The notes under the pieces: generated by a model
The model's database searches: none
The model's input: only the letters and a program-made list of their open reading frames with translations
Told to the model about the DNA's origin: nothing
Origin: a virus
Taxonomy: Duplodnaviria; Caudoviricetes
Direction: 5' to 3' (one strand)
IMG/VR virus record: IMGVR_UViG_3300038365_000149
Span: 1-35,091 of that record
DNA length: 35,091 nucleotides
Part shown: one piece after another, positions 1 through 35,041 of the stretch
How the letters are laid out: the number at the start of each line of letters is the position of its first letter
Numbering within the stretch: position 1 is the stretch's first letter
Position numbers and translations under genes: made by a program

Positions 1-267
1 GGCCTCATTCTCGGCGAGAAGGGCGTCAACATCGCCATCCCGGAGCTGGAGGCGCACGTCCCGGACGTGGAGATGACCCACGAGGCGTCGCTCGGAAAGA
101 TCGCGAGGGACCAGGTGGAGTACATCATGTCCCGCGGCCTGTCGGAGGACGAGGCGGTCGGCATGATCGTCCGCGGCTTCCTGGAGGTCGGCATCCGGAA
201 CATCCCGGAGGAGCTGAAGGCCGAGATCGACAAGACCATCGCCCAGGCCGAGCTGTCCAAGGGCTGA
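1..267 (+). CDS. sufB: SufB/SufD-family Fe-S cluster assembly protein, C-terminal part (host gene, 5' end outside window)
   Basis: Frame open from base 1: ...AIPELEAHVPDVEMTHEASLGKIARDQVEYIMSRGLSEDEAVGMIVRGFL, the canonical SufBD C-terminal signature (THEA-x-G-x-I...Y-x-MSRGL-x-E-x-EA...GF). Confidence 0.9.
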   Translation, partial: GLILGEKGVNIAIPELEAHVPDVEMTHEASLGKIARDQVEYIMSRGLSEDEAVGMIVRGFLEVGIRNIPEELKAEIDKTIAQAELSKG

Positions 268-270
268 AAC

Positions 271-295
271 CACTTTCTCATTTCCCCTATTTTTC
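271..295 (+). terminator. Archaeal-type pyrimidine/oligo-T terminator
   Basis: CACTTTCTCATTTCCCCTATTTTTT immediately after the sufBD stop codon. Confidence 0.5.
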
Positions 296-339
296 GCACG
301 CGGTTCTTTACATCGGGGCGGTCATCGCCGGTCGATACA

Positions 340-717
340 ATGGCGGGAGAGAGCATCAGAACCCCGGACAAGAGCTCGAAGAGGGTCGGCCGCGCCATCG
401 TAGGCGTGGTCGCCATCGTCGCCTTGCTCATTGCGGCCTACCTCGGCACCGGCCTGAGCATGTCGATCGATGAGTACTCGACGACCGAGGTGCCGTTCGT
501 AGGCGTTGGGTTCAGCATCGCCCTCAAGAACGACGGGCTGTTCACTCAGACCAAGGTCGTGCACTGCGAGGTCCGCACCGATGACGGCGTGTACAACGCG
601 TCTAGGGAGGTGACTCTCGGCCCGGGCGAGAGGGCGGAGTTCGTCATGGCTGTCCCCATCATAGGATTGGACACCGATGACGTTCGGGAAAAGAAGTGTT
701 ACACAGCCCTGCTGTGA
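340..717 (+). CDS. Membrane-anchored hypothetical protein (probably host)
   Basis: 125-aa ORF with a basic N-terminus, one TM helix (AIVGVVAIVALLIAAYLG) and a beta-rich ectodomain. Confidence 0.7.
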   Translation: MAGESIRTPDKSSKRVGRAIVGVVAIVALLIAAYLGTGLSMSIDEYSTTEVPFVGVGFSIALKNDGLFTQTKVVHCEVRTDDGVYNASREVTLGPGERAEFVMAVPIIGLDTDDVREKKCYTALL

Positions 718-866
718 GGCGTCTCACCCTTTCCTCCTCATTTGAGTCCGGTCGTATTGATTGATTTTCAATTTATTATAATCACGCCAGATAACGATGG
801 ATTCAATTCAAAAGATTAATTTCCCTCCCGCGTTCACCCGCGGTCAGCTCCCCTAAACTCAGCCGA

Positions 867-5879: not shown

Positions 5880-7978
5880 TCTCCTCCGCGCCGGTGCACG
5901 AGATTGCGGTCGATACCGTCTCTCGGTGGGAATCCTTCTTCCAGAGGACTGAGTACATGCAGAAGGTGCGTGAAATCGCCGACCTGTACCCCGAGCTGAG
6001 CAGCATCATCGTGGACTTCCAGGCGATCGACCACGTCGACTCCGACCTGGCGGAGCAGCTGCTCGACCATCCGGACGCCTGCCTGGCGGCCGGCCGTGAG
6101 GCCATCTGCAACCTAATGCATCAGGATATGAGGCATGCCAGTATAGCGCTCAGAGTTACCAGGCTCCCCAGGGATGCTCGGGTGCGCATCCGTGACCTGC
6201 GAGGCAGGCACATCGGCCGCCTCGTGGCGTTCCCAGCATTGGTCACTAGGAGCGTGCAGCCGAAGCACAATATCATCATCGGCGCGTTCCAGTGCGCCCG
6301 GTGCGGCCAGGTCGTCATGGAGCAGATGCGCGATCGAGCATTCCAGGAACCGCTCGAATGCTACAAGGACCAGGACGGCTGCGGAAGAACGTCCTCAAGC
6401 ACCAAGTTCCGCCTCATCTCTGAACGGTCCAGCACAGAGGACGTGCAGAAAATCGAGTGCCAGGAGCCGCTGGACGATCTCGTTGGCGGCGCATCCCCGG
6501 CCCGCATGACCGTCTGGCTTTCGGGTGAGCTGGCCGGAACCGTATCGGCGGGAGCTAGAGTGATCGTCAACGGTATCATGCGCACCGTGCGGGGGAACGG
6601 CAAGTCTGCCGTGCTCGACGCCGAGGTGGACGCCATCAGCATCGAGCAACAGTCGCAGCGGTTCACCGACATCGAGATCACTCCCGAGGAGGAGGCGGAG
6701 TTCGAGAAGGCATCGAAGGACCCTCAGATATTCGACCACTTGGTGAGCAGCATCGCCCCGGCCATCAAGGGATACGAGAACGAGAAGGCCGGGTTACTGC
6801 TGCAACTCTTCGGCGGTGTCCCAAAGCAGCTGGACGACGGCTCACGGCGCAGGGGTGACATCCACATCCTGCTGGTCGGCGATCCGGGAGTGGCGAAGAG
6901 CCAACTGCTCGAATACATGAGCCACCTGGCCCCGCACGGCGTATACGCCTCGGGCAAATCATCGTCGGGAGTAGGACTAACATGCGCCGCCACCAGGGAC
7001 GCCGATTGGGGAGAGGGGCAATGGACACTGCAGGCCGGGGCGATGGTCCAAGCGAATGGAGGCAACCTGTTCGTTGACGAGCTCGACAAGATGACCGCCG
7101 AGGACCGTTCAGCCATGCATGAGGGGCTGGAATCACAACGCATCACCGTGCACAAGGCTGGCCTAGATGCCACACTCCCGACCGAATGCAGCCTGGCGGC
7201 CGCGGCCAACCCAAAGTATGGCAGGTTCGAGGACACTGAGGAGTTGGCAGCGCAGATCGACCTGCCCGACACGCTGCAGTCCCGCTTCGACCTTATCTAC
7301 ATGATGCGCGACAAGCCGAATCTCAAGGTCGACCGAGACATCGCGTCGCACATCCTGCAGGCGCATCGCCGCGGCGGGGCGCTGCTCAACCGCTACGAGG
7401 TGGGCATGGACGCCGTCATGGAAGACACGGCGGAGATCGCCCCGACATACTCGATGGACTGGTTGCGCAAGTACATCGCCTGGAGCAAGCGCGTCATTCC
7501 CGTCATGACGACGACGGCGGCCAAGCTCATCGAGGATCAGTACGTGACCATACGAGCGACCGGACAGGGGCAGGACAGTAGCGTGCCGATCACCGCGAGG
7601 CAGCTCGAAGGCTACGTCAGACTGTCGGAGGCGATGGCACGGGCGCGGCACTCAAAGGCCGTCGAACCGCGAGACGCCAAGCTGGCTATCGACCTGTGCG
7701 AGTACGCATTGCAGCGCGTCAGCGGGAGCGGGGAGTCGAGAGACGTCGACCGCATCATGTCCGGCACGAGCAAGAAGGACCGCTCGAAGATCCTACTCAT
7801 CCTGGAGATCATCAGATCGGCCGGTCGTCAGGGCATCAGTCGAACTGAGGTCTCGGAGGTCGCTCACGAGCGGCACCGCATCGAGGAGCACGAGACGGCC
7901 ACTGTACTGACGCGACTGCTCGAAAGGGGGGAGATCATGTACAGAGACATGAATAAAGGGATTGTGGCGGTGGTGTGA
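5876..7978 (+). CDS. mcm: MCM replicative helicase
   Basis: GGAGGTG SD; Zn finger CARC...C, Walker A GDPGVAKSQLL, Walker B LFVDELDKM, AAANPKYGRF, Arg finger QSRFDLI, ITARQLE, C-terminal wHTH. Confidence 0.97.
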   Translation: MISSAPVHEIAVDTVSRWESFFQRTEYMQKVREIADLYPELSSIIVDFQAIDHVDSDLAEQLLDHPDACLAAGREAICNLMHQDMRHASIALRVTRLPRDARVRIRDLRGRHIGRLVAFPALVTRSVQPKHNIIIGAFQCARCGQVVMEQMRDRAFQEPLECYKDQDGCGRTSSSTKFRLISERSSTEDVQKIECQEPLDDLVGGASPARMTVWLSGELAGTVSAGARVIVNGIMRTVRGNGKSAVLDAEVDAISIEQQSQRFTDIEITPEEEAEFEKASKDPQIFDHLVSSIAPAIKGYENEKAGLLLQLFGGVPKQLDDGSRRRGDIHILLVGDPGVAKSQLLEYMSHLAPHGVYASGKSSSGVGLTCAATRDADWGEGQWTLQAGAMVQANGGNLFVDELDKMTAEDRSAMHEGLESQRITVHKAGLDATLPTECSLAAAANPKYGRFEDTEELAAQIDLPDTLQSRFDLIYMMRDKPNLKVDRDIASHILQAHRRGGALLNRYEVGMDAVMEDTAEIAPTYSMDWLRKYIAWSKRVIPVMTTTAAKLIEDQYVTIRATGQGQDSSVPITARQLEGYVRLSEAMARARHSKAVEPRDAKLAIDLCEYALQRVSGSGESRDVDRIMSGTSKKDRSKILLILEIIRSAGRQGISRTEVSEVAHERHRIEEHETATVLTRLLERGEIMYRDMNKGIVAVV

Positions 7979-11900: not shown

Positions 11901-12172
11901 AGCATCGCTGCGCCATGTGCGGCGACGAGGCCGAGCAGCTGATCCTCTACGACGGGTTCCTGTTCTGCGGCCGAGAGTGCATCCGCGCCTACGACCGCGC
12001 CGAGCCGGAGCGCAGGATGCTGGTGCACTTCTACGACGGCGACGTGCGCTACGTCGGCGAGGACGGGATCGACGTCGACTTCGCCCTGATAGATGGCACG
12101 TCGCCTCAGACCCCGCAGGCGGGGGAGACCTGGGAGATAACGATGCGGCGGATCTGCGGTGACGTTAAATAA
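11897..12172 (+). CDS. TRASH/FCS-like zinc-finger protein
   Basis: GTGA overlap, GGAGG SD; CAMC...FLFCGREC. Confidence 0.65.
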   Translation: MKHRCAMCGDEAEQLILYDGFLFCGRECIRAYDRAEPERRMLVHFYDGDVRYVGEDGIDVDFALIDGTSPQTPQAGETWEITMRRICGDVK

Positions 12173-12183
12173 TTGCCACTTTT
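12157..12183 (+). promoter_or_regulatory. 27-bp late-promoter repeat, copy 1
   Basis: CGGTGACGTTAAATAATTGCCACTTTT; TTAAATA starts 27 nt before the portal ATG. Confidence 0.8.
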
Positions 12184-12191
12184 GATTCCTG

Positions 12192-14405
12192 ATGTCACTG
12201 CGGACCAGGCTCGGTAACTTCCTCCTAGGCAACAAGGCGGCCGCCGACACCGCCGACACATATCGTCCGGGCCTCTCGCCCATCGACATGCTCAACTTCG
12301 GCCTGGTCCAGCCGTACATCTTCCAGGCGTACGTCTACCACGAGAACTGCTCGATCCTGTGCGACATCGACATCACGCTTACCCAGGAGACGTTCCGCAA
12401 TGGCATCGGCATCGAGCCACGATTTGTTCTCAGGTGCCGACAGTGCGGGCACGAGCTCCAGGAGACGGCCGATCAGTGCCCCTCCTGCTCATCCGACCAG
12501 CTGGACGAGCCGCTGTGGGCGCAGCAGAGGTTCTTCGAGCACCTGGACGGGACGTCGTTCCTCGACCGGGCCAACTACTCCGGGCAGACGCTGCAAGAGG
12601 TCTGCGAGAACGCGGCGCATCATCTGCACGTGGCGGACAACGGCTACCTGCTGGCCGTCAAGACCTACATGTTCAGCGCCGACGGCTCGGTGAAGGAGTC
12701 ATTCGTCAAGGAGATCATATCGCTCGACCCGCGCTGGGTGGAGAAGGTGTTCGACAAGCGCGGCGTGCCCGGCGGCCGGCATCGCCTGTGCCTCGCGCAC
12801 CGCGACGCGCTGCTCGGCCCGGAGGACTATCGCTGCCCCGAGTGCGGCCGACCGACGCACGACGTGACGTTCAAGGTCGTCACCTCCAACAACGGCGTCG
12901 CCTACTATGTCGACGATGAGATCGTCCACCTGACCGCGTTCTACCCGCACCCGCTGTACGGCACCCCTCCGTGCTACAAGATCCTGCACGAGGTGCAGGC
13001 GTACATGTACATCACCGGGAGGGTGGCCAATTATTACAAGAAGGGCCGCGCGCCCGGTGTCATCGCCGTTCGGACCAACAATCCCAAGGCCATAGACGAG
13101 ACGATCAAGAAGGTCAACCTCCAGCTGGAGAAGGATCCCCATGCCGCCCCCTACTTCCCGGTCGACAACCTCCAGGGCAGCGGGGAGTTCATGAAGTGGG
13201 TGCCGTTCATGCAGGACCCCTGCCCCGACATGATGGCCGTCAAGGACGAGGTCCGTCGGGCCATCTGCGCGTTCTTCGGAATCCCGCCGATGGTGGAGTC
13301 GGACACATCGGCCAGCGGCGGCCTCAACGACGAAGGGCATCAGATCACGCTGCTCAACCGCCGCACGCAGAGAGAGCAAGCCCCGTTCAACAACCGGGCG
13401 TTCCCTTGGATGTTCAAGCAGTTCGGCATCACTGACCTTAAGCTGGTGCTCAACAAGTCGGAGAAGGCCGACGAGAAGGCGGACATGGAGCTGCGGCTGC
13501 TTGAGGACCAGCACGCCCAGAACCTCATGAACATGGGCTACGACGTCTGGATCGAGGGTGGGAAGTACAAGCACTCCGACCGGCCGACCGAGAAGCGGCC
13601 GCCGGTGTTCCTGCCGTCCGGGCAGGCGGACGGTACATCGTTACCAGCAACTCAGGGCACGCCCCGCCCGGAGTCGGGAGTGCCGGGCAACAAGGGAGAG
13701 CGATGTCCGAACGGACAGCATTCTCATGGTGATTATGGCGGCGGGCGTTGCCATCCAGAGGAACAGCACCACCGAGACGGCGAGCGACATGAGGAGAGCG
13801 AGCGGCGAGGGCCGCGGCAAGGCTCATACGCGGAAGCGTCGGAAGAGCGGCGGACGGCGTCTATCAAGAGCATCAAGGCCAAAGGGGTCAAGGTGGAGAA
13901 CGCAGAAGGTGCTCATCACAAGGTGCTGGAATACGTAGACTCTGGCCTAGACGAAGCAGTACGACATGAAACGCCATTGCCCGGTCGTATGAAGCTCGAT
14001 CGTAGCTACGCCGAGAAGAGGCGAAACGTGCTCGGGCTGCCGATGGCCTACGACCCTGAGGGTGACGTCCTTCTCATCAACCCGGATTCCATCTTCCTGC
14101 AGGCCGGCACGATAAACCTCCGAGGTAGCATCGATACATTGTTCCGCAAGGGAGAGTCCTCGACCGGAAGCCCTCTTCACATCATCAGGCACGAGCTCGG
14201 CCATGTGGCAAATGTCAAGGCTGGGAGATCACCCGGTAAGGAGTTCGGCGATGAAGGGCATAGGAAGCTGGCGGCGACCGTCAGTAAGAGAGCGGCGGAA
14301 GACCCTGCAGAGTTCGTGGCCGAGGTCTTCGCCGGCCGCCTAGCCGGGAACCAATACACTGATGAGGTCATGCGGCTATACGCTCACTACTTCGGAGGGA
14401 AGTGA
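12192..14405 (+). CDS. Portal protein with zinc-ribbon insertions and a C-terminal zincin-like metallopeptidase domain
   Basis: Position after terL; portal motifs (HLHVADNGYL, DDEIVHL..YGTPP, ICAFFGIPP, GGLNDEGHQI); C-terminal HELGH plus EFVAEVF. Confidence 0.85.
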   Translation: MSLRTRLGNFLLGNKAAADTADTYRPGLSPIDMLNFGLVQPYIFQAYVYHENCSILCDIDITLTQETFRNGIGIEPRFVLRCRQCGHELQETADQCPSCSSDQLDEPLWAQQRFFEHLDGTSFLDRANYSGQTLQEVCENAAHHLHVADNGYLLAVKTYMFSADGSVKESFVKEIISLDPRWVEKVFDKRGVPGGRHRLCLAHRDALLGPEDYRCPECGRPTHDVTFKVVTSNNGVAYYVDDEIVHLTAFYPHPLYGTPPCYKILHEVQAYMYITGRVANYYKKGRAPGVIAVRTNNPKAIDETIKKVNLQLEKDPHAAPYFPVDNLQGSGEFMKWVPFMQDPCPDMMAVKDEVRRAICAFFGIPPMVESDTSASGGLNDEGHQITLLNRRTQREQAPFNNRAFPWMFKQFGITDLKLVLNKSEKADEKADMELRLLEDQHAQNLMNMGYDVWIEGGKYKHSDRPTEKRPPVFLPSGQADGTSLPATQGTPRPESGVPGNKGERCPNGQHSHGDYGGGRCHPEEQHHRDGERHEESERRGPRQGSYAEASEERRTASIKSIKAKGVKVENAEGAHHKVLEYVDSGLDEAVRHETPLPGRMKLDRSYAEKRRNVLGLPMAYDPEGDVLLINPDSIFLQAGTINLRGSIDTLFRKGESSTGSPLHIIRHELGHVANVKAGRSPGKEFGDEGHRKLAATVSKRAAEDPAEFVAEVFAGRLAGNQYTDEVMRLYAHYFGGK

Positions 14406-15229
14406 TGACGTTCGACCTATCCCTATGCCTTCTCTGCAAGCGGCTCATCCCAGAGCCTGGGAAAGGCTGCGAAGCATTTCCAGAGAGGATCCCTGACGAC
14501 ATCTGGGAGAACAGAGTATATCATGTGCTGTCGTTCCCCGGCGACAATGGCCTGATGTTCTCCCCGGTGAATGAGTACATCGATATTCAGAGAATCATCG
14601 ACGCAGAGCGGGAGAGAAGGGCTGAGAGCGATGCATCTGACAAGTCCGCGCCGTTCGAAGAGGTCCGATACACCGGCAACGAGGACGTCGATGCGGTGCT
14701 GTTCGCCGAGGTCATGGTGAATAAGGCCCTCACTCGCGACAGGGCGAAGGAGATACTGGACGCGCTGCTCCGCGTCACCGTTCCCGACTCGTTCCTGGCA
14801 CTGTCGCCGTCTCAAGCGAGGATCGCCATGGAGAAGCTGGTGGACGCCATGACCCAGGCCGGCGGCTGGTCCGTTTCCGGCGTGGTCGACGCGCTTAGGA
14901 AGGCGTTCCCCTCGGTGGACGACTTCCAGCTCCGCCGCATCGTACGCACCGAGAGCGCCCGCATCGCCACCAGGGCGCACGAGATCGAGGCTGTAGAGAA
15001 CGACCCCCCGACCGCTCGTTACGCATGGCGCGGGCCGCGGGACTGGAGGACATGCAGGATACATCAGGCGATCATCGAGAGGCAGCCTCAGGAGGGTCTA
15101 TCGTTGGAACGGCTCAAAACCCACGTGGCCCAGGTGGCGGCGGAGTTCGGCATCAAGGTCCAAGACGATTGGATCGTGCACCCGAACCAGCGCGGCAGTT
15201 TCACGCGAGTATTCTCGCTCGAACGGTGA
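14405..15229 (+). CDS. MuF (gpF-like) head morphogenesis protein with an N-terminal CxxC-CxAFP domain
   Basis: C-terminal RRIVRTESARI...YAWRGPRDWRTCRIH...HPNQRGSF is a MuF signature; N-terminal CLLCK...CEAFPERIPDDIW...H...GDNGLMF. Confidence 0.8.
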   Translation: MTFDLSLCLLCKRLIPEPGKGCEAFPERIPDDIWENRVYHVLSFPGDNGLMFSPVNEYIDIQRIIDAERERRAESDASDKSAPFEEVRYTGNEDVDAVLFAEVMVNKALTRDRAKEILDALLRVTVPDSFLALSPSQARIAMEKLVDAMTQAGGWSVSGVVDALRKAFPSVDDFQLRRIVRTESARIATRAHEIEAVENDPPTARYAWRGPRDWRTCRIHQAIIERQPQEGLSLERLKTHVAQVAAEFGIKVQDDWIVHPNQRGSFTRVFSLER

Positions 15230-15250
15230 CGTTAAATAATTGCCACTTTT
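15224..15250 (+). promoter_or_regulatory. 27-bp late-promoter repeat, copy 2
   Basis: Identical to 12157-12183; TTAAATA starts 27 nt before ATG 15259. Confidence 0.8.
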
Positions 15251-15258
15251 AGTTCGTG

Positions 15259-15741
15259 ATGGCACGCGACGTTGAGGCAGAGTTCGAGGACTCCGCAGCG
15301 TATCGCCGCGTGAAGCAGCTCCTTGAAGGCGGCGAGGAGTGGAGCGTCGAGTGCCGGACCATCTATTCTGAGTTCATCGAGTTCGGTGCCGGCCCGGCCG
15401 CAGGGCATGCTCGGTTCATGCCGCCGCTGAAGCCGATCCTCGAATGGACGCAACGCAAACTGGGGCTCAAGGGTGAGCAGGCCAAACGGGCCGCCGAAGG
15501 CATCCGCTGGGCCATCTATCGCTCCGGCACTAGGCCCCAACCGTTCGCCCGGCCGGCGATCCAGGACCTCAAGGCGGTCATCGGCGAGGTGGTCGGTGAT
15601 GCGCTGGAGTCCGGCGAGGACCCCATGCACGCGGTCATGGACTTCATCCGCTCCCAGATGCGGCACCATATCGACCAGAACGGCACGAACGACGAGGGCA
15701 CTCTGGCGCGCGAGATGCACATCGTGCAGGGAGGCTTGTAA
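15259..15741 (+). CDS. HK97 gp10-like virion morphogenesis protein
   Basis: YSEFIEFGAG, MPP..PI..W..RK and GTRPQPFARPA motifs. Confidence 0.7.
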   Translation: MARDVEAEFEDSAAYRRVKQLLEGGEEWSVECRTIYSEFIEFGAGPAAGHARFMPPLKPILEWTQRKLGLKGEQAKRAAEGIRWAIYRSGTRPQPFARPAIQDLKAVIGEVVGDALESGEDPMHAVMDFIRSQMRHHIDQNGTNDEGTLAREMHIVQGGL

Positions 15742-16958
15742 TGGTCTACTCATCCCTAGGTGAGCTGCCCCCGCAAGTGCGCGGCGCGCTGGACCCCGAG
15801 GACCAGCAGGTATGGCTCATCGCGTACAATCAGGCCGTGATCGAGACCAAGGACCCCCGCGAGGCGTTCCGCGTGGCATGGCATGCCGCCGCCAAGGGCG
15901 AGAACGTCCGCGCCGTGAGCGGCGTCGTCAACCGCGACGTGGTCGACAACGGCGGAGAGCGGGTCAACCAGGACGCGCTGGCCGAGGCCATCAACGACGC
16001 CATCTGGAACAGCGGCGCGACCTACAACGACGTGCACAGCAACCACCCCTTCGGGGACTGGTTCGACGCCCAGGTGGAGATGGGGCCGGACGGAATCAAG
16101 CAGACCCGCATCTACGGCGCGTGCCGGAAGGGCCAGCCCTTCTATGACGCATGCTGGGAGGAGTACATCCTGGGCGGCTCCAAGACGGAGCTGAGCATCG
16201 GGATCATGAAGATCGATCCATACACCAAGTGCGAGGCCGGCCGATGCTGGAAGCAGGTCGACGGGCTCCAGGTGTTCGAGGCCTCGGCGGTTCCCAGGGG
16301 CCTGTGCCCCGGCAGCCGCCTGGATCGCATCAACTTCTCCGCCAAATCTGACACTGATGAGAGATCGCCCGTGAGGGCAGGAGACGAGGAAATGACCGAA
16401 GACGCGACCAAGACGGCCGCGCCCCCCATGGCCGACAAGGAGGAGCCGAAAGGCGAGCCCGAGACGGCTGCCCCCGAAACCGGGAGCACGGGGGCGCTGG
16501 AGGAGGGAGTGCAGAAGCTCATGGGAATGCTGGCGGAGATCAACGCCCGCCTGGACCGGATGGAGGCCAGTATGGCCGCCCTGAGACCAGCCCCCGTCGA
16601 TTCCGATGAGAAGGCGGAGGACGAAGCGCAGGAAGCTCCCCCGGAAGAGGCCCCTGAGAACAAGGAGGACGAGGGGGAGCCGAAACAGGAGGCGGGGGAC
16701 AAGTGCGGCTGCTCCAAACAGGCCAGCAACAAGGCCGCCGATCTCGTAGCCGCCAACAAGGCCGCGAGAAAGGAGGCGGAGCAGCGCGGGACGTCCGCGC
16801 AGCGCCCCGAGGCGCCGCTCGACGGCAATCCGGCCAAGACCCAGAAGGTCAAGGCCGAGAGCATGGAGGACAGAATGAGACGCTACGCCGGCATGTCCGC
16901 GGCGGAGCTGGAGGCGGAGGGAAATCAGATCACCTCGGCGATGAACAGGACGGTGTAA
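15741..16958 (+). CDS. ChaB domain + HK97-type prohead protease + scaffold region
   Basis: N-terminal YSSLGELPPQVRGAL..QQVWLIAYN..AFRVAWHAA (ChaB); VDNGGERV, DVH, LSIG and EASAV (protease); acidic coiled-coil C-terminus. Confidence 0.85.
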   Translation: MVYSSLGELPPQVRGALDPEDQQVWLIAYNQAVIETKDPREAFRVAWHAAAKGENVRAVSGVVNRDVVDNGGERVNQDALAEAINDAIWNSGATYNDVHSNHPFGDWFDAQVEMGPDGIKQTRIYGACRKGQPFYDACWEEYILGGSKTELSIGIMKIDPYTKCEAGRCWKQVDGLQVFEASAVPRGLCPGSRLDRINFSAKSDTDERSPVRAGDEEMTEDATKTAAPPMADKEEPKGEPETAAPETGSTGALEEGVQKLMGMLAEINARLDRMEASMAALRPAPVDSDEKAEDEAQEAPPEEAPENKEDEGEPKQEAGDKCGCSKQASNKAADLVAANKAARKEAEQRGTSAQRPEAPLDGNPAKTQKVKAESMEDRMRRYAGMSAAELEAEGNQITSAMNRTV

Positions 16959-26630: not shown

Positions 26631-26690
26631 ATTATTATAATGGTCATGCCCATTATAGGTGAGCCTCACGGAAATAGACGAAATATAAAA
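26631..26690. promoter_or_regulatory. Divergent TATA promoters with a 22-bp palindrome
   Basis: TATAATGGTCATGCCCATTATA at 26636-26657; AAATATAAAA at 26681-26690, about 30 nt before ATG 26712. Confidence 0.6.
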
Positions 26691-26711: not shown

Positions 26712-27572
26712 ATGCTAGGAATGAAGGAATACGACCTTGCCAGTTATGCGACCTACAAGGTCCTGCACGCATTGGACGAATCCAAAGAAGGATATGTCCC
26801 AAAGTCAAGATATTACAAGGCAATCTATCTGGTCAGCCACAATCTTATGAGCAAGGGGATAGATATCTGCCTGCCCTGGCGCTGGTACATATATGGGCCG
26901 GTTGTAGAGCTCGACTGCATAGATGATGGCGCATTTTCATTAGAGGTCATGCCTGGAGATGCGGACGACGAAACTAAGGATAGATTATTTTATGGAGAGA
27001 AGCCAGCGGTCGACGCTCCCTTCGACATAGTGCGCATCGTTAACAATGAAGTGAAAGCCGTATGCGCGAACAATCCCAAATTGTACAGATTATTGGATAA
27101 GGCATACAAAACCGCCCCGCTCTCCTTCATCCAGATTCTGAGGCATTATGACGACAGCATACAGAGCAACTTCAAGAGGTTTACCCGAGAACCGACAGTG
27201 ATCAATAGGAACGATGATCTGAGACATGACCTCGTCCGTAACTTCCCGATTGAACCCTATCGCTCAATGTATGACTCATTTCTTAGGGTTCTTGAGCTCA
27301 TACGGGTCGTCAAGGATCCGGAAACGTTCGACGTAGTGAAACCGACAGCGTGCTCCGAAGAGCTCCGGAGGGCCATGGGGCACGGGTTCGGCCGGGACTA
27401 CTATTCTAGACATCTGCCGGAAAACAAGGTGGAGAAGTACGAAAGGGATTATGAGCGTTATATCGACATCTTCGACGATTTTGCATTTAACAAAGAGATC
27501 GAATTCTATAGGGCCACTAGCAGGCATGACTGTGCTCACTACGAGCGCGAGATCATGAATCTCCTGGGATGA
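26712..27572 (+). CDS. DUF4065/SocA (Panacea)-like protein, putative antitoxin
   Basis: KSRYYKAIYLV...LPWRWYIYGPV resembles the K.+Y / W.YGP signature; AT-richer than the flanks. Confidence 0.55.
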   Translation: MLGMKEYDLASYATYKVLHALDESKEGYVPKSRYYKAIYLVSHNLMSKGIDICLPWRWYIYGPVVELDCIDDGAFSLEVMPGDADDETKDRLFYGEKPAVDAPFDIVRIVNNEVKAVCANNPKLYRLLDKAYKTAPLSFIQILRHYDDSIQSNFKRFTREPTVINRNDDLRHDLVRNFPIEPYRSMYDSFLRVLELIRVVKDPETFDVVKPTACSEELRRAMGHGFGRDYYSRHLPENKVEKYERDYERYIDIFDDFAFNKEIEFYRATSRHDCAHYEREIMNLLG

Positions 27573-27582
27573 CTTTGAGAGG

Positions 27583-28266
27583 ATGGAAATGGCCAACTTC
27601 TTCGACACAAGCGTCTTCATTGGATACACTTACTGCGACGATGACTGGAGGGTCGCGTCGGAAGGCATGTTGCAAGGCAGCTCCATGAAGCTCACGAGCG
27701 ATAGGGCGAAGAATGAATATCTGAAAAAACACAGGTATTTTCAAAGGGTCCGGAGAGGTGGTCTCATCCAGCTCCGTGATAGAATCGCCGACTCTGTTGG
27801 GTGCGGGAGCGCCACTCTTTCATCGGACGAGGTAGAAAATCTCGTGCCTCAGATACAGAACGATGAGCGCAACACAGAATGGCTTAGGAGCACAGCCAAG
27901 AAACTGGCGAAAAAGTCATCCTATAAGGTCGAGATATGCAAGCGAATCGATAGGTTCATGGACTATTACTTTCGATTCTCGACAGAACGCATGGACGACA
28001 TTATCGGGTGGTGTTTACCGAGTGTGATGATCATTGAATGCTATCCTCGATTTCAGACATACCCAGGCATACTAGAGATATTTCAGAGCAACGGCATGCT
28101 GAACGAGGACGACAATGAGATAATACTTGATGCTCATGATTTCTGTAAGCTCTGTAATGAATCGATAGATCTCGTCACCGGGGATTACCAGGACTACAAA
28201 CGGCACGAGGCTATTATCACATCTAATACGTATATAAGTAACATAATTTACCTGGGCGACTGCTGA
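27583..28266 (+). CDS. PIN-domain ribonuclease, putative toxin
   Basis: FFDTSVFI, E in AKNEY, EDDNEIILDA and LVTGD give the four acidic PIN positions. Confidence 0.75.
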   Translation: MEMANFFDTSVFIGYTYCDDDWRVASEGMLQGSSMKLTSDRAKNEYLKKHRYFQRVRRGGLIQLRDRIADSVGCGSATLSSDEVENLVPQIQNDERNTEWLRSTAKKLAKKSSYKVEICKRIDRFMDYYFRFSTERMDDIIGWCLPSVMIIECYPRFQTYPGILEIFQSNGMLNEDDNEIILDAHDFCKLCNESIDLVTGDYQDYKRHEAIITSNTYISNIIYLGDC

Positions 28267-29777: not shown

Positions 29778-30185
29778 TCACTTTTTCTTCTTTTTATCCC
29801 ATAGCACTTTGACGAAGCGATTCGTGGCGAAGAATAGAACTATTCCACCGAGCGCATATCCCGTCCCGTATATGTATCGCGTCTCTGGTGCGACTAGATT
29901 CAGCATTATTGCCAGTCCAAGAAAAGTGAGAGATACGGCAAATGACCAGAAGAAGAAGTTCACGCTCAGTTGATTGTAATTATCGGCCTCTTCCATGGAT
30001 CGATTGATGGCTTCAATCATCTCCTTCTTCTCGACGGCGAGGCCGATCATTAAGCCGGTCACCTGCTGTTCGATGGAGTCCAGCTTTTTCTCTATTGCAT
30101 CAAACCGACCGTTCAATTGAGCGATTGGGTCGCAAACCTCATCGAGTCTAGGAGACCATTTCTCACTGTCGGCGATCGTGCTCAT
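29778..30185 (-). CDS. Coiled-coil plus two-TM membrane protein in the repressor operon
   Basis: ATGA overlap with the repressor; two hydrophobic helices and a KKKK tail. Confidence 0.75.
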   Translation of the reverse strand: MSTIADSEKWSPRLDEVCDPIAQLNGRFDAIEKKLDSIEQQVTGLMIGLAVEKKEMIEAINRSMEEADNYNQLSVNFFFWSFAVSLTFLGLAIMLNLVAPETRYIYGTGYALGGIVLFFATNRFVKVLWDKKKKK

Positions 30186-30457
30186 GGCTCCTCTCTCAGG
30201 ATTCCCTCGATGGCGGCGAGGTGTTCGGCGACCTTTCTGCCCTTGGGGGTGAGAGAGATTATCTTCCTGAAAGGGTCAAACTTTTCTTCCTCATTCAAAA
30301 GTCCAGCATCGACGAGCTCCTTAATACGAGATTGGAGCACGGTCTTGTTCTTCGGTATCTTCTGATAGATCATCCCTTTGGGCATATCTCCCTCACGCAG
30401 GCACAGCACGAGCACTTTGGCCGCGTGAGCACTCTCGATAATTGATAGGTCTTGCAT
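30182..30457 (-). CDS. Winged-helix (MarR/HxlR-like) transcriptional repressor
   Basis: KTVLQSRIKELVDAGLL...ISLTPKGRKVAEHL; divergent from the early operon. Confidence 0.85.
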   Translation of the reverse strand: MQDLSIIESAHAAKVLVLCLREGDMPKGMIYQKIPKNKTVLQSRIKELVDAGLLNEEEKFDPFRKIISLTPKGRKVAEHLAAIEGILREEP

Positions 30458-30654: not shown

Positions 30655-30738
30655 TGCCTGGGTGGCGTTCATTCTTGAACAGGTCTTGCATCCTCCAGCC
30701 ATCCAGGCACCCGGATAACCATGGAGGTGCAAGACATG
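30655..30738 (+). promoter_or_regulatory. Structured 5' leader sequestering the SD of the first early gene
   Basis: Stem 30655-30666/30698-30709 (12 bp, one G-U) and stem 30683-30697/30722-30735 (14 bp, one bulge) covering GGAGGTG. Confidence 0.55.
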
Positions 30739-31044
30739 GAGAACGAGCTGAGCAAGGGGGCGAGACAAGCCCTTGACCTGATCGCCGAGAACCCGGCGCA
30801 GGTCCTCTACATCGTGCAGGACTACGACCGCCTCTCGCAACGCGTGGGAGAGCTGGAGCGCCGCGTACGAGAGAACAATGCCGTCGACGCTCGGCGTTCA
30901 TCGATCGAGGTCGGCACGCCGGCCAAGGGCGGGAACATGAAGGTGTACTTCGACCCGTTCGCCAGCGCCATCGAGAACGACCGCGCCGTGGAGGAGGCCC
31001 AGCGTGTGCTCGCGCTAGCGGGCGGCAGAATCGGGGGTGCATGA
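30736..31044 (+). CDS. Hypothetical early protein
   Basis: GGAGGTG SD before ATG 30736; coiled coil plus SIEVGTPAKGGNMKVYFD. Confidence 0.75.
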   Translation: MENELSKGARQALDLIAENPAQVLYIVQDYDRLSQRVGELERRVRENNAVDARRSSIEVGTPAKGGNMKVYFDPFASAIENDRAVEEAQRVLALAGGRIGGA

Positions 31045-31328
31045 GCATGGACGAGCTCGCCAAGCCCTGGATAGTCGTTCGCAACGGGCAGATCATCGGC
31101 GCGTATGACGACCGCAGATGCGCCTACGCTGTCGCCAAGGAGGCTGGGGCCTCCGTGCACTGGTGCGATGGAATGCATGATGGTAAGGCCCATCTCGCCC
31201 TGATGGTTGATTATGACCCGGATGAGGATGTCCTGTACCAGCCGGAGATCGTGATACAGCGGCTCACTTCTGACACGCCGGCCGAGGCCATCCACGACAT
31301 GATCGCCAACGCCCTGGGGGAGGAGTGA
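31041..31328 (+). CDS. Hypothetical protein
   Basis: GGGGTG SD, ATGA overlap. Confidence 0.65.
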   Translation: MSMDELAKPWIVVRNGQIIGAYDDRRCAYAVAKEAGASVHWCDGMHDGKAHLALMVDYDPDEDVLYQPEIVIQRLTSDTPAEAIHDMIANALGEE

Positions 31329-31330
31329 AC

Positions 31331-31624
31331 ATGGGAGACATCCCCTTGGATGATTGTATAGGCTTGTATAACTCCCTGGCCAAGCTCAAGCGCTCAGGCA
31401 TACGTCTCTATAACCGTGCCCAGCAGCTGGGGTTCCCCGAGTGCAGCCGCCCAGACTGCCCCCGCGAGGAGGTGGCTCCGGCCATAGGCGACTGCATGTG
31501 CCTCATGGATGAGGCCATGGGTCATCTGCGCGCCTACATCGATGAGGTGTACCCAGGACAGGTGGAGGGAGGGCCGAGGGCGATCACAGAGAATGACCTT
31601 CCGACCTGGTGGGGGAGGGCCTGA
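31331..31624 (+). CDS. Hypothetical protein
   Basis: GAGGAG SD; helical with CSRPDC. Confidence 0.6.
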   Translation: MGDIPLDDCIGLYNSLAKLKRSGIRLYNRAQQLGFPECSRPDCPREEVAPAIGDCMCLMDEAMGHLRAYIDEVYPGQVEGGPRAITENDLPTWWGRA

Positions 31625-31626
31625 CA

Positions 31627-31851
31627 ATGCCCCCGCTCCACGAGCGCATCGACGCGCTTCTCCACCAGATCGACGAGGTGCGCGGCTCCATACGGCAGGA
31701 GATCACCTTCCTGCGGTCCGAGCACATGGTGCACAGGACCGAGCACCTCGCCGACGTCCCCTACTACCTGACGGAAGCTTACAACGAGCTGGACCAGGCG
31801 ATGAACGACCTGGCCGCGGCCGGCTGCGCCGCTCACCGGGGGGGCATGTGA
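31627..31851 (+). CDS. Hypothetical helical protein
   Basis: GGAGG SD, ATG 31627. Confidence 0.6.
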   Translation: MPPLHERIDALLHQIDEVRGSIRQEITFLRSEHMVHRTEHLADVPYYLTEAYNELDQAMNDLAAAGCAAHRGGM

Positions 31852-32102
31852 TGCCGCTCCGCCAGATCACTGTCCGCATGACGCTGGAGGACGCGCGACA
31901 TCTCAGCACCGACCTGCAGGCCATGCTGCGCGCCTACGAATCCATGTCGGCCGAGGAGGCCCGCAAGGGCATCGTCATCAAGGCGCTGCAGTTCGCACAG
32001 CGCGCCGAAGACTGCTCCCGCCGCCTGGAAGCGGTCGAGCAGGCCATCGCGCGGCGGCCGCTCCCCCTGTACTACCATATGGCCGAAGGGGTGAGGCAGT
32101 GA
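31851..32102 (+). CDS. Hypothetical helical protein
   Basis: TGATG coupling; MPLRQITVRMTLEDARHL... Confidence 0.6.
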   Translation: MPLRQITVRMTLEDARHLSTDLQAMLRAYESMSAEEARKGIVIKALQFAQRAEDCSRRLEAVEQAIARRPLPLYYHMAEGVRQ

Positions 32103-32512
32103 TCTCCCCCGAGCAGCGCGCCTGGGCCAACGGGTACGCGGACCTGTATGTCGCGCTGTACGAGCGCATCAACGGCGTCGTGGACAACCCGGCCGCCTCG
32201 GTGTCAGCATGCAACGGTGCGATGATCGCCGCCGACCGTGCGGGGATGGTCGTGCCTCGCGAGGGCGCCGATCCGCCGCGCATCAAGATCCCCGGCCCCC
32301 CTATCGATGAGGCCGCTAGACCGGAGCCTCTTCCCGCTCCCTACCAGTCCGCATCTCGCGAGCAGCCGAACGGGGTGGGCAAGTGCCCCAAGTGCGGGAA
32401 CACCGACATCAACAGGACCTCTCGCGTAAGCGGCAAGCCGTACCAGGCATGCACCAAGTGCGGCGTCTTCATCTCATCTAACGGCACCACCAGGCCGATG
32501 GGGGGACGTTAG
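32099..32512 (+). CDS. Protein with C-terminal topoisomerase-C4-like zinc ribbon
   Basis: GKCPKCGNTDINRTSRVSGKPYQACTKCG after a Pro-rich linker. Confidence 0.7.
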   Translation: MISPEQRAWANGYADLYVALYERINGVVDNPAASVSACNGAMIAADRAGMVVPREGADPPRIKIPGPPIDEAARPEPLPAPYQSASREQPNGVGKCPKCGNTDINRTSRVSGKPYQACTKCGVFISSNGTTRPMGGR

Positions 32513-32697
32513 TGAGCCTTGAGCACTTGGTGCGGAGAGCAATGCAAATGAACGAGCTGGTCGAGCAGGCCGGCACTGGCGGTGACCGCGGCAACTCGGA
32601 TGGTTCTACCTCTCGCAACGCGGCCGATCATCCCCACCACCCTGAGACAACCGCCGCCGAGAGCCTGCCCGCCGTCAAGGAGTGGGAGTGGATCTAA
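32512..32697 (+). CDS. Small hypothetical protein
   Basis: Overlaps both neighbours by one base (TAGTG and TAATG). Confidence 0.45.
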   Translation: MSLEHLVRRAMQMNELVEQAGTGGDRGNSDGSTSRNAADHPHHPETTAAESLPAVKEWEWI

Positions 32698-33584
32698 TGG
32701 CCGCTAAGCAGGCAAGCATCGATCTACTGGCTGACATCAAGGCCGTCATCGATCAATACCCGAACATCAAGATGACGGTTAGGCAGGTCTACTACCGCCT
32801 CGTTGCACAGCAGAAGCTGCCCAACAGCACGTCCAGCTACAACCGTGTCAAGCGTGTGCTAACAGAGGCGCGACTGGAAGGTACTGTCAGTTTCGACAGC
32901 ATCGAGGACCGCACCCGGAGCATCATCTCCCCCGATGGGGAGCAGGAAGAAAGCGTCGGAAGATATACTCGGTCGTGGGAAGCCCACATCAGGAATCTGG
33001 ACGAGCATTACGACCTGCCGAGATGGTGGGGGCAGCCGTCCAAGGTCGTCGTCCTCGTGGAGAAGCAGGCCCTACAGGGTCTCTTTATGGATGTCTGTGA
33101 GGAAAGGGCAGTGGATCTGCTGGTATGCAGGGGCTACCCTTCGCTGACGGTGCTCTACAAGCTCGCCAAGAGCCTGCGCCGATGCGAGGAGGATGTGCAA
33201 CTCCTTTACTTCGGTGACTACGACCCGAGCGGCTTGGACATCGACCGGAACGTGGAGGAGAGGCTGAGCGAAGACTTTGGAGCTACATTCACCTTCGAGC
33301 GCATCGCCATCTCCCTCGACCAGATCGAGGAATACGACATTCCCCCGGCCCCGGCCAAGCTGACCGACAGCAGGACGAGGGGCATGGAAGAGAAGTACGG
33401 CGAGGCGATGCAGGTCGAGCTTGACGCCATCGATCCACCGGACCTACAGACCATCATCGGGGACGCCATCGATGCTCATTTCGATGAGGACATTTACGAC
33501 AATGATCGAGCGGACGAGCTGGAGAATAGAAGGGGCCGGGTCAAGGAGTGGCTGGATAAGCTCATAGTGCCGAGGAAAGGCTGA
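32697..33584 (+). CDS. Spo11/topoisomerase VI A-like protein (Mini-A type: wHTH plus TOPRIM)
   Basis: TVRQVYYRL (Spo11-like RxxYY), VLVEKQAL, RGYPS, YFGDYDPSGLDI and ELDAI. Confidence 0.8.
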   Translation: MAAKQASIDLLADIKAVIDQYPNIKMTVRQVYYRLVAQQKLPNSTSSYNRVKRVLTEARLEGTVSFDSIEDRTRSIISPDGEQEESVGRYTRSWEAHIRNLDEHYDLPRWWGQPSKVVVLVEKQALQGLFMDVCEERAVDLLVCRGYPSLTVLYKLAKSLRRCEEDVQLLYFGDYDPSGLDIDRNVEERLSEDFGATFTFERIAISLDQIEEYDIPPAPAKLTDSRTRGMEEKYGEAMQVELDAIDPPDLQTIIGDAIDAHFDEDIYDNDRADELENRRGRVKEWLDKLIVPRKG

Positions 33585-33600
33585 TGTCAGGAGGGATGGG

Positions 33601-33861
33601 ATGAGTATACGACTGAGCGAGGCCCGGCGCTGCTTCGGCGAGCCAGGGTATCAGCTGGCCACCGAGGCCGTGGCGGCGCTGGCGTTGCATCTCGACGCTG
33701 AGGGCACCGCCATAGCCGAGGCCGTGCTACGCTCGGTCGACGACGAGAACGAGCACCGTCGCCTGCAGGGCCTCCCCCCGCGGCGCCGGATCGACGCCTG
33801 CGACATCAAGCGGGCGATCCGGGCCATGAGCGAGGCGACCGAGGGGGTGTTCCGCCGATGA
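33601..33861 (+). CDS. Histone-fold protein
   Basis: LALHLDAEGTAIAEAV compared with HMfB LAKILEEMGRDIASEA; RRRIDACDIKRAIR compared with RKTIKAEDIELAVR. Confidence 0.7.
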   Translation: MSIRLSEARRCFGEPGYQLATEAVAALALHLDAEGTAIAEAVLRSVDDENEHRRLQGLPPRRRIDACDIKRAIRAMSEATEGVFRR

Positions 33862-34961
33862 ACGGGACAGATATATGCCCGGACGGCGATGCCTGCCTGA
33901 TGACGCTTCTCGGCGCATACGAGAAGTGGCTCATCGGCAACGAGGTACAAGAGAGCAGCCGCGATGAATATCTGCGGAATGCGGGGAGGGTGATAGACGT
34001 GCTGCCTGGCGGCGTGCCGGGCAGCGAGGAGGAACTGAAGGCCAGGATCGCCGCGCTGACGGAGGACGAGCTCTTCGAGATCAAGGAGCGGGTGGGCTGG
34101 ACAGCAATGGACGGCACGCGGAAGAAGCAGAACACCGCGTCGACCACCTGCAACATGATCAACCAGCTCCTGAAGTGGGCCAAGTGCCCCCACAGGATCC
34201 GGGTGCCGCGCAAGGTCAAGGTGCTCCGCATCCCGCTCTCGCAGGACGAGAGCGAGAGGCTGCTTCGCGCCGCGAGCGAGCACCGCAACCCGGTGTTCGC
34301 CGCACGGAACAGGGCCATCGTGGTCATGTTCCAGGAGGGGGCGATAAGGCGGGGGTCGTTCAACATCTTGATGGAGGACCTCCGCCTGGACGAGGGATAT
34401 TTCATCATCCGGGACACCAAGAACCAGGATGACTGGAAGATCGACGTCCCCGAGATCGTGGTGGAGGCCATCATGGACTACCTGCGCGTCAGGCCGAAGG
34501 GCAAGAACGCGCAGGAGGACAGCTGGCTCTTCATCTCGACGCACGGCACCGCCCTGTGCGATCAGATGGCCTACAAGGTCGTCAAGCAAGCGGCCGCGCG
34601 GGCGGGGCTGGACCGTAACATCTGGCCCCACCTGCTGCGGACCACCAAACTTACGTCCCTGGTGCGCAAAGGGGTGAGCATCTACGACGTCAAGGACGTC
34701 GCCTGCCATCGCAACATACAGTCGCTGGAGCCCTACATCTGCATGGGAGACGAGGATCAGCACGACCGCATCGTCTCCGCCTCCATGTTCCAGCACGGTC
34801 AGGACAGAAGGCCGACGGTGCGCATCGAGGACACCGGCGCTGGTATCGAGGACCTCACCGTCCGCCTCACCGAGCAGCTCGTGGACGGCCGAATCTCAGA
34901 GGCGACGTACAACAGGGCGCTCGCCGCCATCTCCCAGAAGGAGGTGGTACGATCAGACTGA
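33858..34961 (+). CDS. int: Tyrosine recombinase/integrase with C-terminal SHOCT-like helix pair
   Basis: Catalytic R (EGAIRR), K (TKN), HxxR (HLLR), H (ACH) and Y (LEPY); C-terminal LVDGRISEATYNRAL. Confidence 0.92.
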   Translation: MNGTDICPDGDACLMTLLGAYEKWLIGNEVQESSRDEYLRNAGRVIDVLPGGVPGSEEELKARIAALTEDELFEIKERVGWTAMDGTRKKQNTASTTCNMINQLLKWAKCPHRIRVPRKVKVLRIPLSQDESERLLRAASEHRNPVFAARNRAIVVMFQEGAIRRGSFNILMEDLRLDEGYFIIRDTKNQDDWKIDVPEIVVEAIMDYLRVRPKGKNAQEDSWLFISTHGTALCDQMAYKVVKQAAARAGLDRNIWPHLLRTTKLTSLVRKGVSIYDVKDVACHRNIQSLEPYICMGDEDQHDRIVSASMFQHGQDRRPTVRIEDTGAGIEDLTVRLTEQLVDGRISEATYNRALAAISQKEVVRSD

Positions 34962-35014: not shown

Positions 35015-35041
35015 AAAAGATTAATATGCTATCTATTAATC
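35015..35041 (+). promoter_or_regulatory. TATA-like element overlapped by an 8-7-8 palindrome, upstream of a gene starting at 35070
   Basis: AAAAGATTAATA; GATTAATA-TGCTATC-TATTAATC at 35019-35041; GGAGG SD followed by ATG 35070. Confidence 0.5.

Follow-up and report, generated by a model that had tools for sequence, protein, structure and literature searches.

A histone-fold gene beside the integrase gene of tailed proviruses and its possible role in recombination

INTRODUCTION

What does a small histone-like protein do when its gene directly precedes, and overlaps, the integrase gene of a tailed provirus? The question is raised by an ORF on the plus strand of a 35,091-base virus record, the whole of which was analyzed and is called the window here. 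An earlier note on this DNA had read the ORF as a histone-fold protein with an extended alpha2/L2 region, and had suggested that it chromatinizes viral DNA, disturbs host chromatin or acts as an IHF/Xis-like helper of the integrase. Our best reading is that, in archaeal tailed proviruses, the gene forms the leading member of a conserved histone–integrase pair and that its product probably helps the integrase; taken as a whole, this explanation has in our judgment about an even chance of being correct.

RESULTS

The gene and its provirus

The region around the ORF contains the following features.

30182–30457, minus strand: putative repressor with an HxlR-like winged helix, oriented divergently to the early operon and the third protein in common with the tailed virus G001 described below (Pfam, phmmer)
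30721–33584, plus strand: tightly packed early operon that runs into the histone and integrase genes, its content differing among relatives (ORFs, locus comparison)
32697–33584, plus strand: DUF2399/PHROG 6247 'DNA topoisomerase'-like gene, a variable insert outside the conserved module (Pfam, PHROGs, locus comparison)
33585, plus strand: left edge of the histone–integrase module, where homology to the related locus L016 begins, just 5′ of GGAGG
33590–33594, plus strand: Shine-Dalgarno-like GGAGG, six bases 5′ of the histone-fold ORF (sequence)
33601–33861, plus strand: histone-fold gene, 86 aa, with predicted alpha1 (5–12), alpha2 (21–55), L2 (56–65) and alpha3 (66–85) (alignment, AlphaFold2)
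33858–34961, plus strand: tyrosine integrase, 367 aa, sharing the ATGA at 33858–33861 with the histone stop, a 4-nt overlap (family models)

The ORF at 33601–33861 was confirmed as a genuine coding gene with relatives. Its codon-position differences from the homolog at locus L017 were 13/10/25, a third-position bias, while those from the homolog at L016 were 5/5/6, with no bias. All candidate catalytic residues of the window integrase are present (R164/R165, K188, H258, R261, H284 and Y293), and the integrases of the histone-bearing elements scored best with an XerA-like model. The window, which is the entire virus record, also carries MCM, terminase, portal, tail tube and baseplate genes; the best GenBank phage matches of the MCM are archaeal viruses at ~30% identity. 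The DNA of the window occurs in fermentation, sludge and soil metagenomes, and no RNA datasets were among its listed holders.

Host genes at the left end identify the window as an integrated archaeal head-tail provirus. The ends are marked as follows.

1–717, plus strand: host flank, consisting of the 3′ end of a SufB/SmsB gene (1–267) and a membrane protein gene (340–717) (family models, clusters)
810–820, plus strand: candidate attL core (11-bp direct repeat)
35015–35025, plus strand: candidate attR core, an 11-bp direct repeat of 810–820 (repeat search)

The cluster to which the left-flank membrane protein belongs sits on contigs of up to 915 kb. The candidate att core would imply a provirus of about 34.2 kb, but contigs from other runs track the window through to its right end. 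An 11-bp repeat was reached in 11 of 2000 shuffles, a frequency that applies to regions picked after the repeat was seen. The candidate attR core overlaps a perfect 8-7-8 inverted repeat at 35019–35041. No tRNA genes were found in the window or in the five loci searched, and no arm-type array was seen adjoining the candidate att site.

Other sequence features of the window were also recorded. The heptamer TGCAACA occurs in seven copies on both strands within ~340 bases at 1014–1356, with just two copies elsewhere in the window; this cluster, just inside the left junction, could be a replication origin or an array of arm-type sites. At locus L017, several short AAACAT repeats, noticed by eye directly 3′ of the integrase gene (6015–6110), are possible arm-type sites. 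Perfect inverted arms of 8 bp in AT-rich DNA occur at two sites only, 35019–35041 and 26636–26657, the latter marking the left edge of a segment (26712–28266) that holds two low-GC (~50%) genes without Pfam matches. Since different genes fill this slot in locus L015, the segment looks like a swappable defense or toxin-antitoxin cassette, its second protein being PIN-like by eye. A 42-nt AT-rich repeat, 90% identical between its copies at 12157–12198 and 15224–15265, lies just 5′ of the portal gene and of an ORF at 15256, respectively, and is likely a late promoter or operator. The head-module protein at 15741–16958 has an N-terminal ChaB domain that scores above the Pfam cut-off.

A histone fold visible at the level of the family

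A search among 1.84 billion representatives gave 13 relatives at E≤0.001, and a profile search picked 14 of 5117 candidates as family members. The first profile was built from 16 sequences and the final alignment from 28; residue counts are given for 19 representatives of <80% identity. The query alone matched nothing in Pfam, NCBIfam or the PHROG families and no histone in the PDB. Using the 16-sequence profile against the PDB, we found that the top five rows were all archaeal histones (E 1e-4 to 7e-3, over alpha1–alpha2 only), the best being MJ1647 (8bdk, E 1e-4) and HMfB (5e-4), with HMfA and HPhA. The 28-row profile again placed four histones on top, with cytochrome c at rank 5. The similarity to HMfB that the earlier note had seen in the letters thus stands above chance for the family, but not for the query by itself. 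Pfam family PF00808 was matched by two of the 16 members (best E 4e-4). In NCBIfam, neither the query nor the L007 protein described below matched NF043032, and three relatives scored 17.5–24.9 bits with this model (cut-off 50 bits).

Structure prediction led to the same fold. AlphaFold2 with the 28 rows gave a model (pLDDT 83, pTM 0.55) with the helices listed above, that is, a short alpha1, a long alpha2 of 35 residues and an alpha3, joined by L1 and L2 as in histones; the single-sequence model of the query was poor (pLDDT 52). Foldseek with the monomer model returned nothing at E≤0.001 in the PDB or BFVD. VIA-align ranked five histone-fold chains first over alpha1–alpha2, at Z values of just 4.7–5.0, a range that the tool calls common. 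When residues 1–74 of the relative P0026 were used in an Atlas structure search, all ten rows were histone-fold clusters. Canonical archaeal histone models aligned with 62–64 of its 74 residues (TM 0.73–0.79), while TAF10, CENP-X (TM 0.81) and a half-viral Atlas cluster of 99 members aligned over all 74, extension included. We conclude that the family very probably has a histone fold, as the earlier note had held, and that the fold can be seen only at the family level. The Atlas search of the query itself brought up AAA-lid-like helical bundles; none of these exceeded the naming bar, and the family-level evidence was preferred.

The Atlas clusters of 99, 58 and 285 members contain unnamed histone-like proteins of 80–88 aa that are 50–90% viral (Uroviricota). 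Tailed-virus histones may form a larger group, since the 99-member cluster aligns across the whole extension, and histone-like proteins are less rare in tailed viruses than the earlier note had stated. The locus scans revealed no further confirmed relative among viral contigs (searched with the query, the sub-alignments A3, A6 and A7, the window integrase and an integrase alignment), among GTDB genomes (alignment A4 and the MCM), or among GenBank phages and plasmids (P0026 and P0013); the L007 integrase found only itself. These scans need exact short words, and a blank result does not amount to an absence of relatives. The protein tree of the family had little support, with 0 of 19 inner branches starred, and no origins were read from it.

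Residues that set the family apart from nucleosomal histones

The register was taken from the HMfB alignment of the profile search, and the residue roles from the accessible portions of PMC6136690 and PMC13260811. Residues A23, L27, L31, I38 and V42 correspond to the HMfB core residues A24, L28, L32, I39 and A43, and this dimer core is retained among the representatives: A23 in 19/19, L, I or F27 in 19/19, L31 in 19/19, I, L or V38 in 17/19 and A, V or I42 in 16/19. Columns 20–69 of the alignment are free of gaps in 28/28 rows. The R-x6-D clamp noticed earlier is present as R61 and D68, equivalent to R52–D59 of HMfB, in the query and in 13 of the 19 representatives. The clamp positions covary, in that all four rows without R61 carry H68 (Fisher p 0.004, with three of the four from one clade). 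Histone H2A has an arginine in L2 and a histidine at the clamp; an H2A-like reading of L2 was rejected, as P0010 gave no H2A match.

Fifteen residues lie between the equivalents of L46 and R52, compared with five in canonical histones, so that the insertion is 10 residues long; the structural alignment of 64 of the 74 residues of P0026 agrees. The extended alpha2/L2 region claimed before is thus borne out. This extension is the most conserved part of the protein (N50 and R53 19/19, G57 and P60 18/19, E49 and Q56 17/19).

The DNA-contacting positions are altered. Position 18, equivalent to the L1 arginine R19 of HMfB, is Q in 17 representatives, E in one, M in one and R in none. Position 63, equivalent to the threonine of the RKT motif (T54), is R in 19/19 and T in 0/19, and the RT pair of HMfB-type nucleosomal histones is absent from the family. 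Since L1 in either chain is paired with L2 of its partner, the most straightforward inference is a shift of the minor-groove arginine across the pair; the earlier note had missed this swap. The stacking glycine G16 is G in 1/19 at position 15 and in 6/19 at position 16, the length of L1 being variable. In alpha1, position 9 is R or K in 19/19, while position 10, equivalent to HMfB R10, is R or K in 9/19. The median charge over 28 rows is +2 for alpha1, +3 for the extension plus L2 and −3 for alpha2.

The tetramer interface of HMfB is likewise not retained: the equivalent positions keep L46 in 1/19, H49 in 1/19, D59 in 13/19 and L62 in 0/19, and the 10-residue insertion sits in the interface. 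The tetramer residues and the RT pair are named as required or universal in the sections consulted of PMC6136690 and PMC13260811. Judged by its residues, then, a family member reads as a histone fold with an added conserved surface rather than a nucleosomal histone.

These data bear on the proposal that the protein chromatinizes the viral genome in the cell or the virion, as HMfB or giant-virus histones do. The histone fold itself speaks for it, as would a host from the Methanomassiliicoccaceae, which would be histone-free and would oblige the virus to supply its own. In the source data of PMC13260811, 17 of 17 Methanomassiliicoccaceae among the rows listed have 'no histones', and the accessible part of PMC7613761 agrees. 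Chromatinization is disfavored by the loss of the L46/H49/L62 tetramer residues and of the RT pair, by a median family pI of 7.3 with a net charge near zero, and by the position of the gene in the lysogeny module, at the distal end of the early operon and outside the head module. We regard it as very unlikely.

The second role suggested in the earlier note, disturbance of host chromatin, gained no support. As a host-takeover or anti-defense factor the protein would poison host histones by heterodimerizing with them, or would shield viral DNA. An intact dimer core combined with changed DNA and tetramer residues would suit such a factor, as would the position in the early operon amid small variable genes. 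On the other hand, the putative host lineages are mostly without histones, and cargo genes of that sort vary here while the histone gene stays fixed to int. This role too has only a slim chance of being the right one.

The histone and integrase genes as a conserved pair

Five related loci were fetched: L015–L018, from 4 of 53 candidate stretches, and L007, from 1 of 14 motif matches. The remaining 13 motif matches were dropped as chance, the best scoring 16.6 bits versus 36.4 for L007. L015 comes from the window virus itself, and the two were treated as one element; L018, which is 91% identical to L017 and ends inside the gene, was left out. In 4/4 distinct elements with downstream DNA (window/L015, L016, L017 and L007), the histone stop overlaps the start of a tyrosine integrase gene by 4 nt (ATGA or GTGA), although the L016 contig carries just the first 91 integrase codons. 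The context is known for L007 and for 3 of the 19 representatives. With three of the four elements closely related (histones 63–77% identical), the count amounts to two independent observations.

The distant observation is L007, located within a 36-kb tailed virus of 36% GC (G001). Its protein aligns with the family over 64 columns without gaps (probability 95%), and its score of 36.4 bits compares with a maximum of 7.7 in 2000 shuffles. When the profile was limited to residues 1–47, L007 was not recovered; the match leans on the motif used for finding it. We also compared the window (61% GC) with G001, using 323 x 209 six-frame ORFs. At E<1e-3, blastp matched only the histone (E 4e-7) and the integrase (3e-5, ~20–25% identity), and phmmer added the repressor (1e-5) as a third match; the terminases, portals and tail tubes gave no match. 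The order in both viruses is repressor, divergent early operon, histone, integrase.

In contrast to this pair, the DNA in front of it is not conserved. The 600 bases 5′ of the histone gene are unrelated between loci, apart from 16 bases in L016. In run X5, a contig connects 32610 directly with 33600, so that the DUF2399 gene is gone and the histone kept, and one contig in run X6 covers the histone and integrase genes behind different upstream DNA. A tie of the histone to the DUF2399 gene was rejected, since of five loci searched only L015 has that gene. Run X1 has a diverged second copy of DUF2399/PHROG 6247 on a different contig of deeper coverage, and this copy was seen in runs X3 and X5 as well.

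Four-nucleotide RTGA overlaps are frequent in these operons (4 of 9 junctions in the window operon and 5 of 12 in L007), and the preserved adjacency, rather than the overlap itself, is the signal. The earlier suggestion of an IHF/Xis-like helper therefore gains from the adjacency in distant viruses, whereas the ATGA overlap on which it had leaned is no evidence on its own. The same frequency of overlaps would suit simple hitch-hiking, with a gene of unrelated or minor function lying beside int and att by inheritance only; genes adjoining att do co-transfer, and only two independent lineages are at hand. Yet the pair has outlasted the divergence of the integrases to ~20–25% identity and of the genomes to 61% versus 36% GC, and its upstream neighbors differ even between 77%-identical copies. 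We consider hitch-hiking very unlikely.

The third shared protein, the repressor, brings in another explanation: the protein may be a promoter binder with a histone fold, resembling Cox or NF-Y, that controls the lysis-lysogeny switch and stays with int because both have to be expressed together. Many directionality factors also act as regulators (PMC5861418, in the part available), and the TAF10 and CENP-X models cover P0026 completely. No operator was identified, and such a regulator would not need a lasting overlap with int while every upstream gene is swapped. We consider this explanation unlikely, although it has a better chance than chromatinization, host interference or hitch-hiking.

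A proposed role as integrase accessory factor

We propose that the histone-fold protein is an accessory factor of the integrase, similar to IHF/Xis or SNJ2 Orf3, that bends att-site DNA to tune integration or excision; we give this role about an even chance and favor it over the rival explanations. A small protein genetically coupled to the integrase, as expected of such a factor, was found in 4/4 elements. The histone gene takes the slot just before int, which in lambda belongs to xis. No member of the Xis or IHF families was found among the 44 window ORFs. Weak evidence against the role is that no histone–integrase fusion was found among 7995 longer candidates.

The mechanism would run as follows. 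The conserved core and clamp point to a handshake homodimer, which would bind DNA through alpha1 and L1–L2, with the minor-groove arginine shifted from L1 (Q18) to L2 (R63). No hypernucleosome would form, because the extension would displace the residues of the four-helix bundle. The E49-N50-R53-Q56-G57 extension may instead provide a new surface that binds the integrase or crossed DNA, and translational coupling would set the ratio of helper to integrase. Overall, the dimer would bend a short piece of att-site DNA, much as IHF and Xis act in lambda.

The SNJ2 genes orf2 and orf3 overlap the integrase gene, and their products strongly raise integration (PMC5861418, in the part available). Against an accessory role, the XerA-like type of integrase works alone in vitro, and the characterized archaeal integrases all recombine without a directionality factor, according to the accessible text of PMC8371274. 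The near-neutral net charge and the missing L1 arginine would also be compatible with weak DNA binding or none at all. A more specific version of our proposal is that temperate viruses whose archaeal hosts are largely histone-free have turned a distinct histone family into a directionality factor of the integrase, with the arginine shift from L1 to L2 and an extension that grips the integrase or a Holliday junction. We offer this version tentatively, as somewhat less probable than the general role.

DISCUSSION

The conserved histone–integrase pair strengthens the finding and a chromatin role is without support; the function itself we infer. Characterized archaeal integrases need no directionality factor, and the pair offers a named, directly testable two-gene module for the question of how archaeal proviruses balance integration against excision. 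The natural arginine swap between L1 and L2 also puts to the test a residue signature that is called universal for histones in the portions consulted of PMC13260811.

Some members of the family have been catalogued before. In the part seen of the PMC13260811 source table, at least two cluster-1 sequences, DRIF01000138.1_6 and JAHIPG010000134.1_2, show the extension motif by eye; the genomes that carry them belong to Thermoplasmatota E2 and to Nanoarchaeota. Both are filed as generic histones, and the portions consulted mention no link to viruses or integrases. One motif-bearing entry is sporadic in the order UBA202 (1 of 18 among the rows listed), as expected for a mobile gene. The sporadic 'histones' counted in genomes of Thermoplasmatota and DPANN archaea may belong to proviral cargo and not to chromatin. 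The 'Thermoplasmatota' category in the source data of PMC11390915 may be the same family. The main text and readable supplements of PMC11390915 do not contain the word 'integrase'; 'histone' is absent from the main text of PMC11705971, which covers 38 archaeal proviruses; and 'integrase', 'phage' and 'archaeal virus' are absent from PMC9145170, on viral histones. Literature searches of open-access sources, seen in part, gave no description of an integrase-linked histone. The sequences have therefore been partly catalogued, while for the integrase link, which is the new element, we found no account.

The archaeal histones HMfA/HMfB, HPhA and MJ1647 are the best PDB matches of the family profile and share the dimer core and the register of the R-D clamp. 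They are without the 10-residue alpha2/L2 insertion, the R-to-Q change in L1 and the T-to-R change in RKT; the family differs further in its lost tetramer residues, its near-neutral charge and its viral origin. Its gene is coupled to an integrase gene, whereas these archaeal histones are encoded in single-gene operons.

The IHF-related, RdgC and phage histones that Schwab et al. 2024 describe (PMC11390915, as far as available) are similarly rare and lie in multi-gene operons with recombination or DNA-bending neighbors, the IHF-histone clusters also showing a topoisomerase VI-like gene. In the same portions, the IHF histones are bacterial, keep RxTxxxxD and the sprocket arginine, and lie beside an IHF-like gene. 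In contrast, our family has lost the threonine and the sprocket arginine, and no IHF/HU Pfam match was found among the 44 window ORFs, which sets it outside the IHF histones. The phage histones described there have a truncated alpha3, a shortened alpha2 and a C-terminal tetramer helix, while alpha2 is lengthened in our family and alpha3 is predicted to span 20 residues, so that it does not belong with these either. Nor does the family match the RdgC histones described there.

In genetic arrangement, lambda Xis/IHF and SNJ2 Orf2/Orf3 are similar: they too are small proteins encoded directly 5′ of, and overlapping, a tyrosine integrase, with a proposed architectural role. They are winged-helix, MarR or coiled-coil proteins, whereas the family is predicted to have a histone fold. 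In MHF1–MHF2 (CENP-S/X), which binds branched DNA, a complex of histone-fold proteins works for an enzyme of recombination (PMC4573851, in the part available). This complex is a eukaryotic heterotetramer that partners the FANCM translocase, and no sequence relationship with our family is shown. If the proposed role is correct, the provirus gene would encode a histone dedicated to site-specific recombination, a prokaryotic parallel of the MHF–FANCM partnership.
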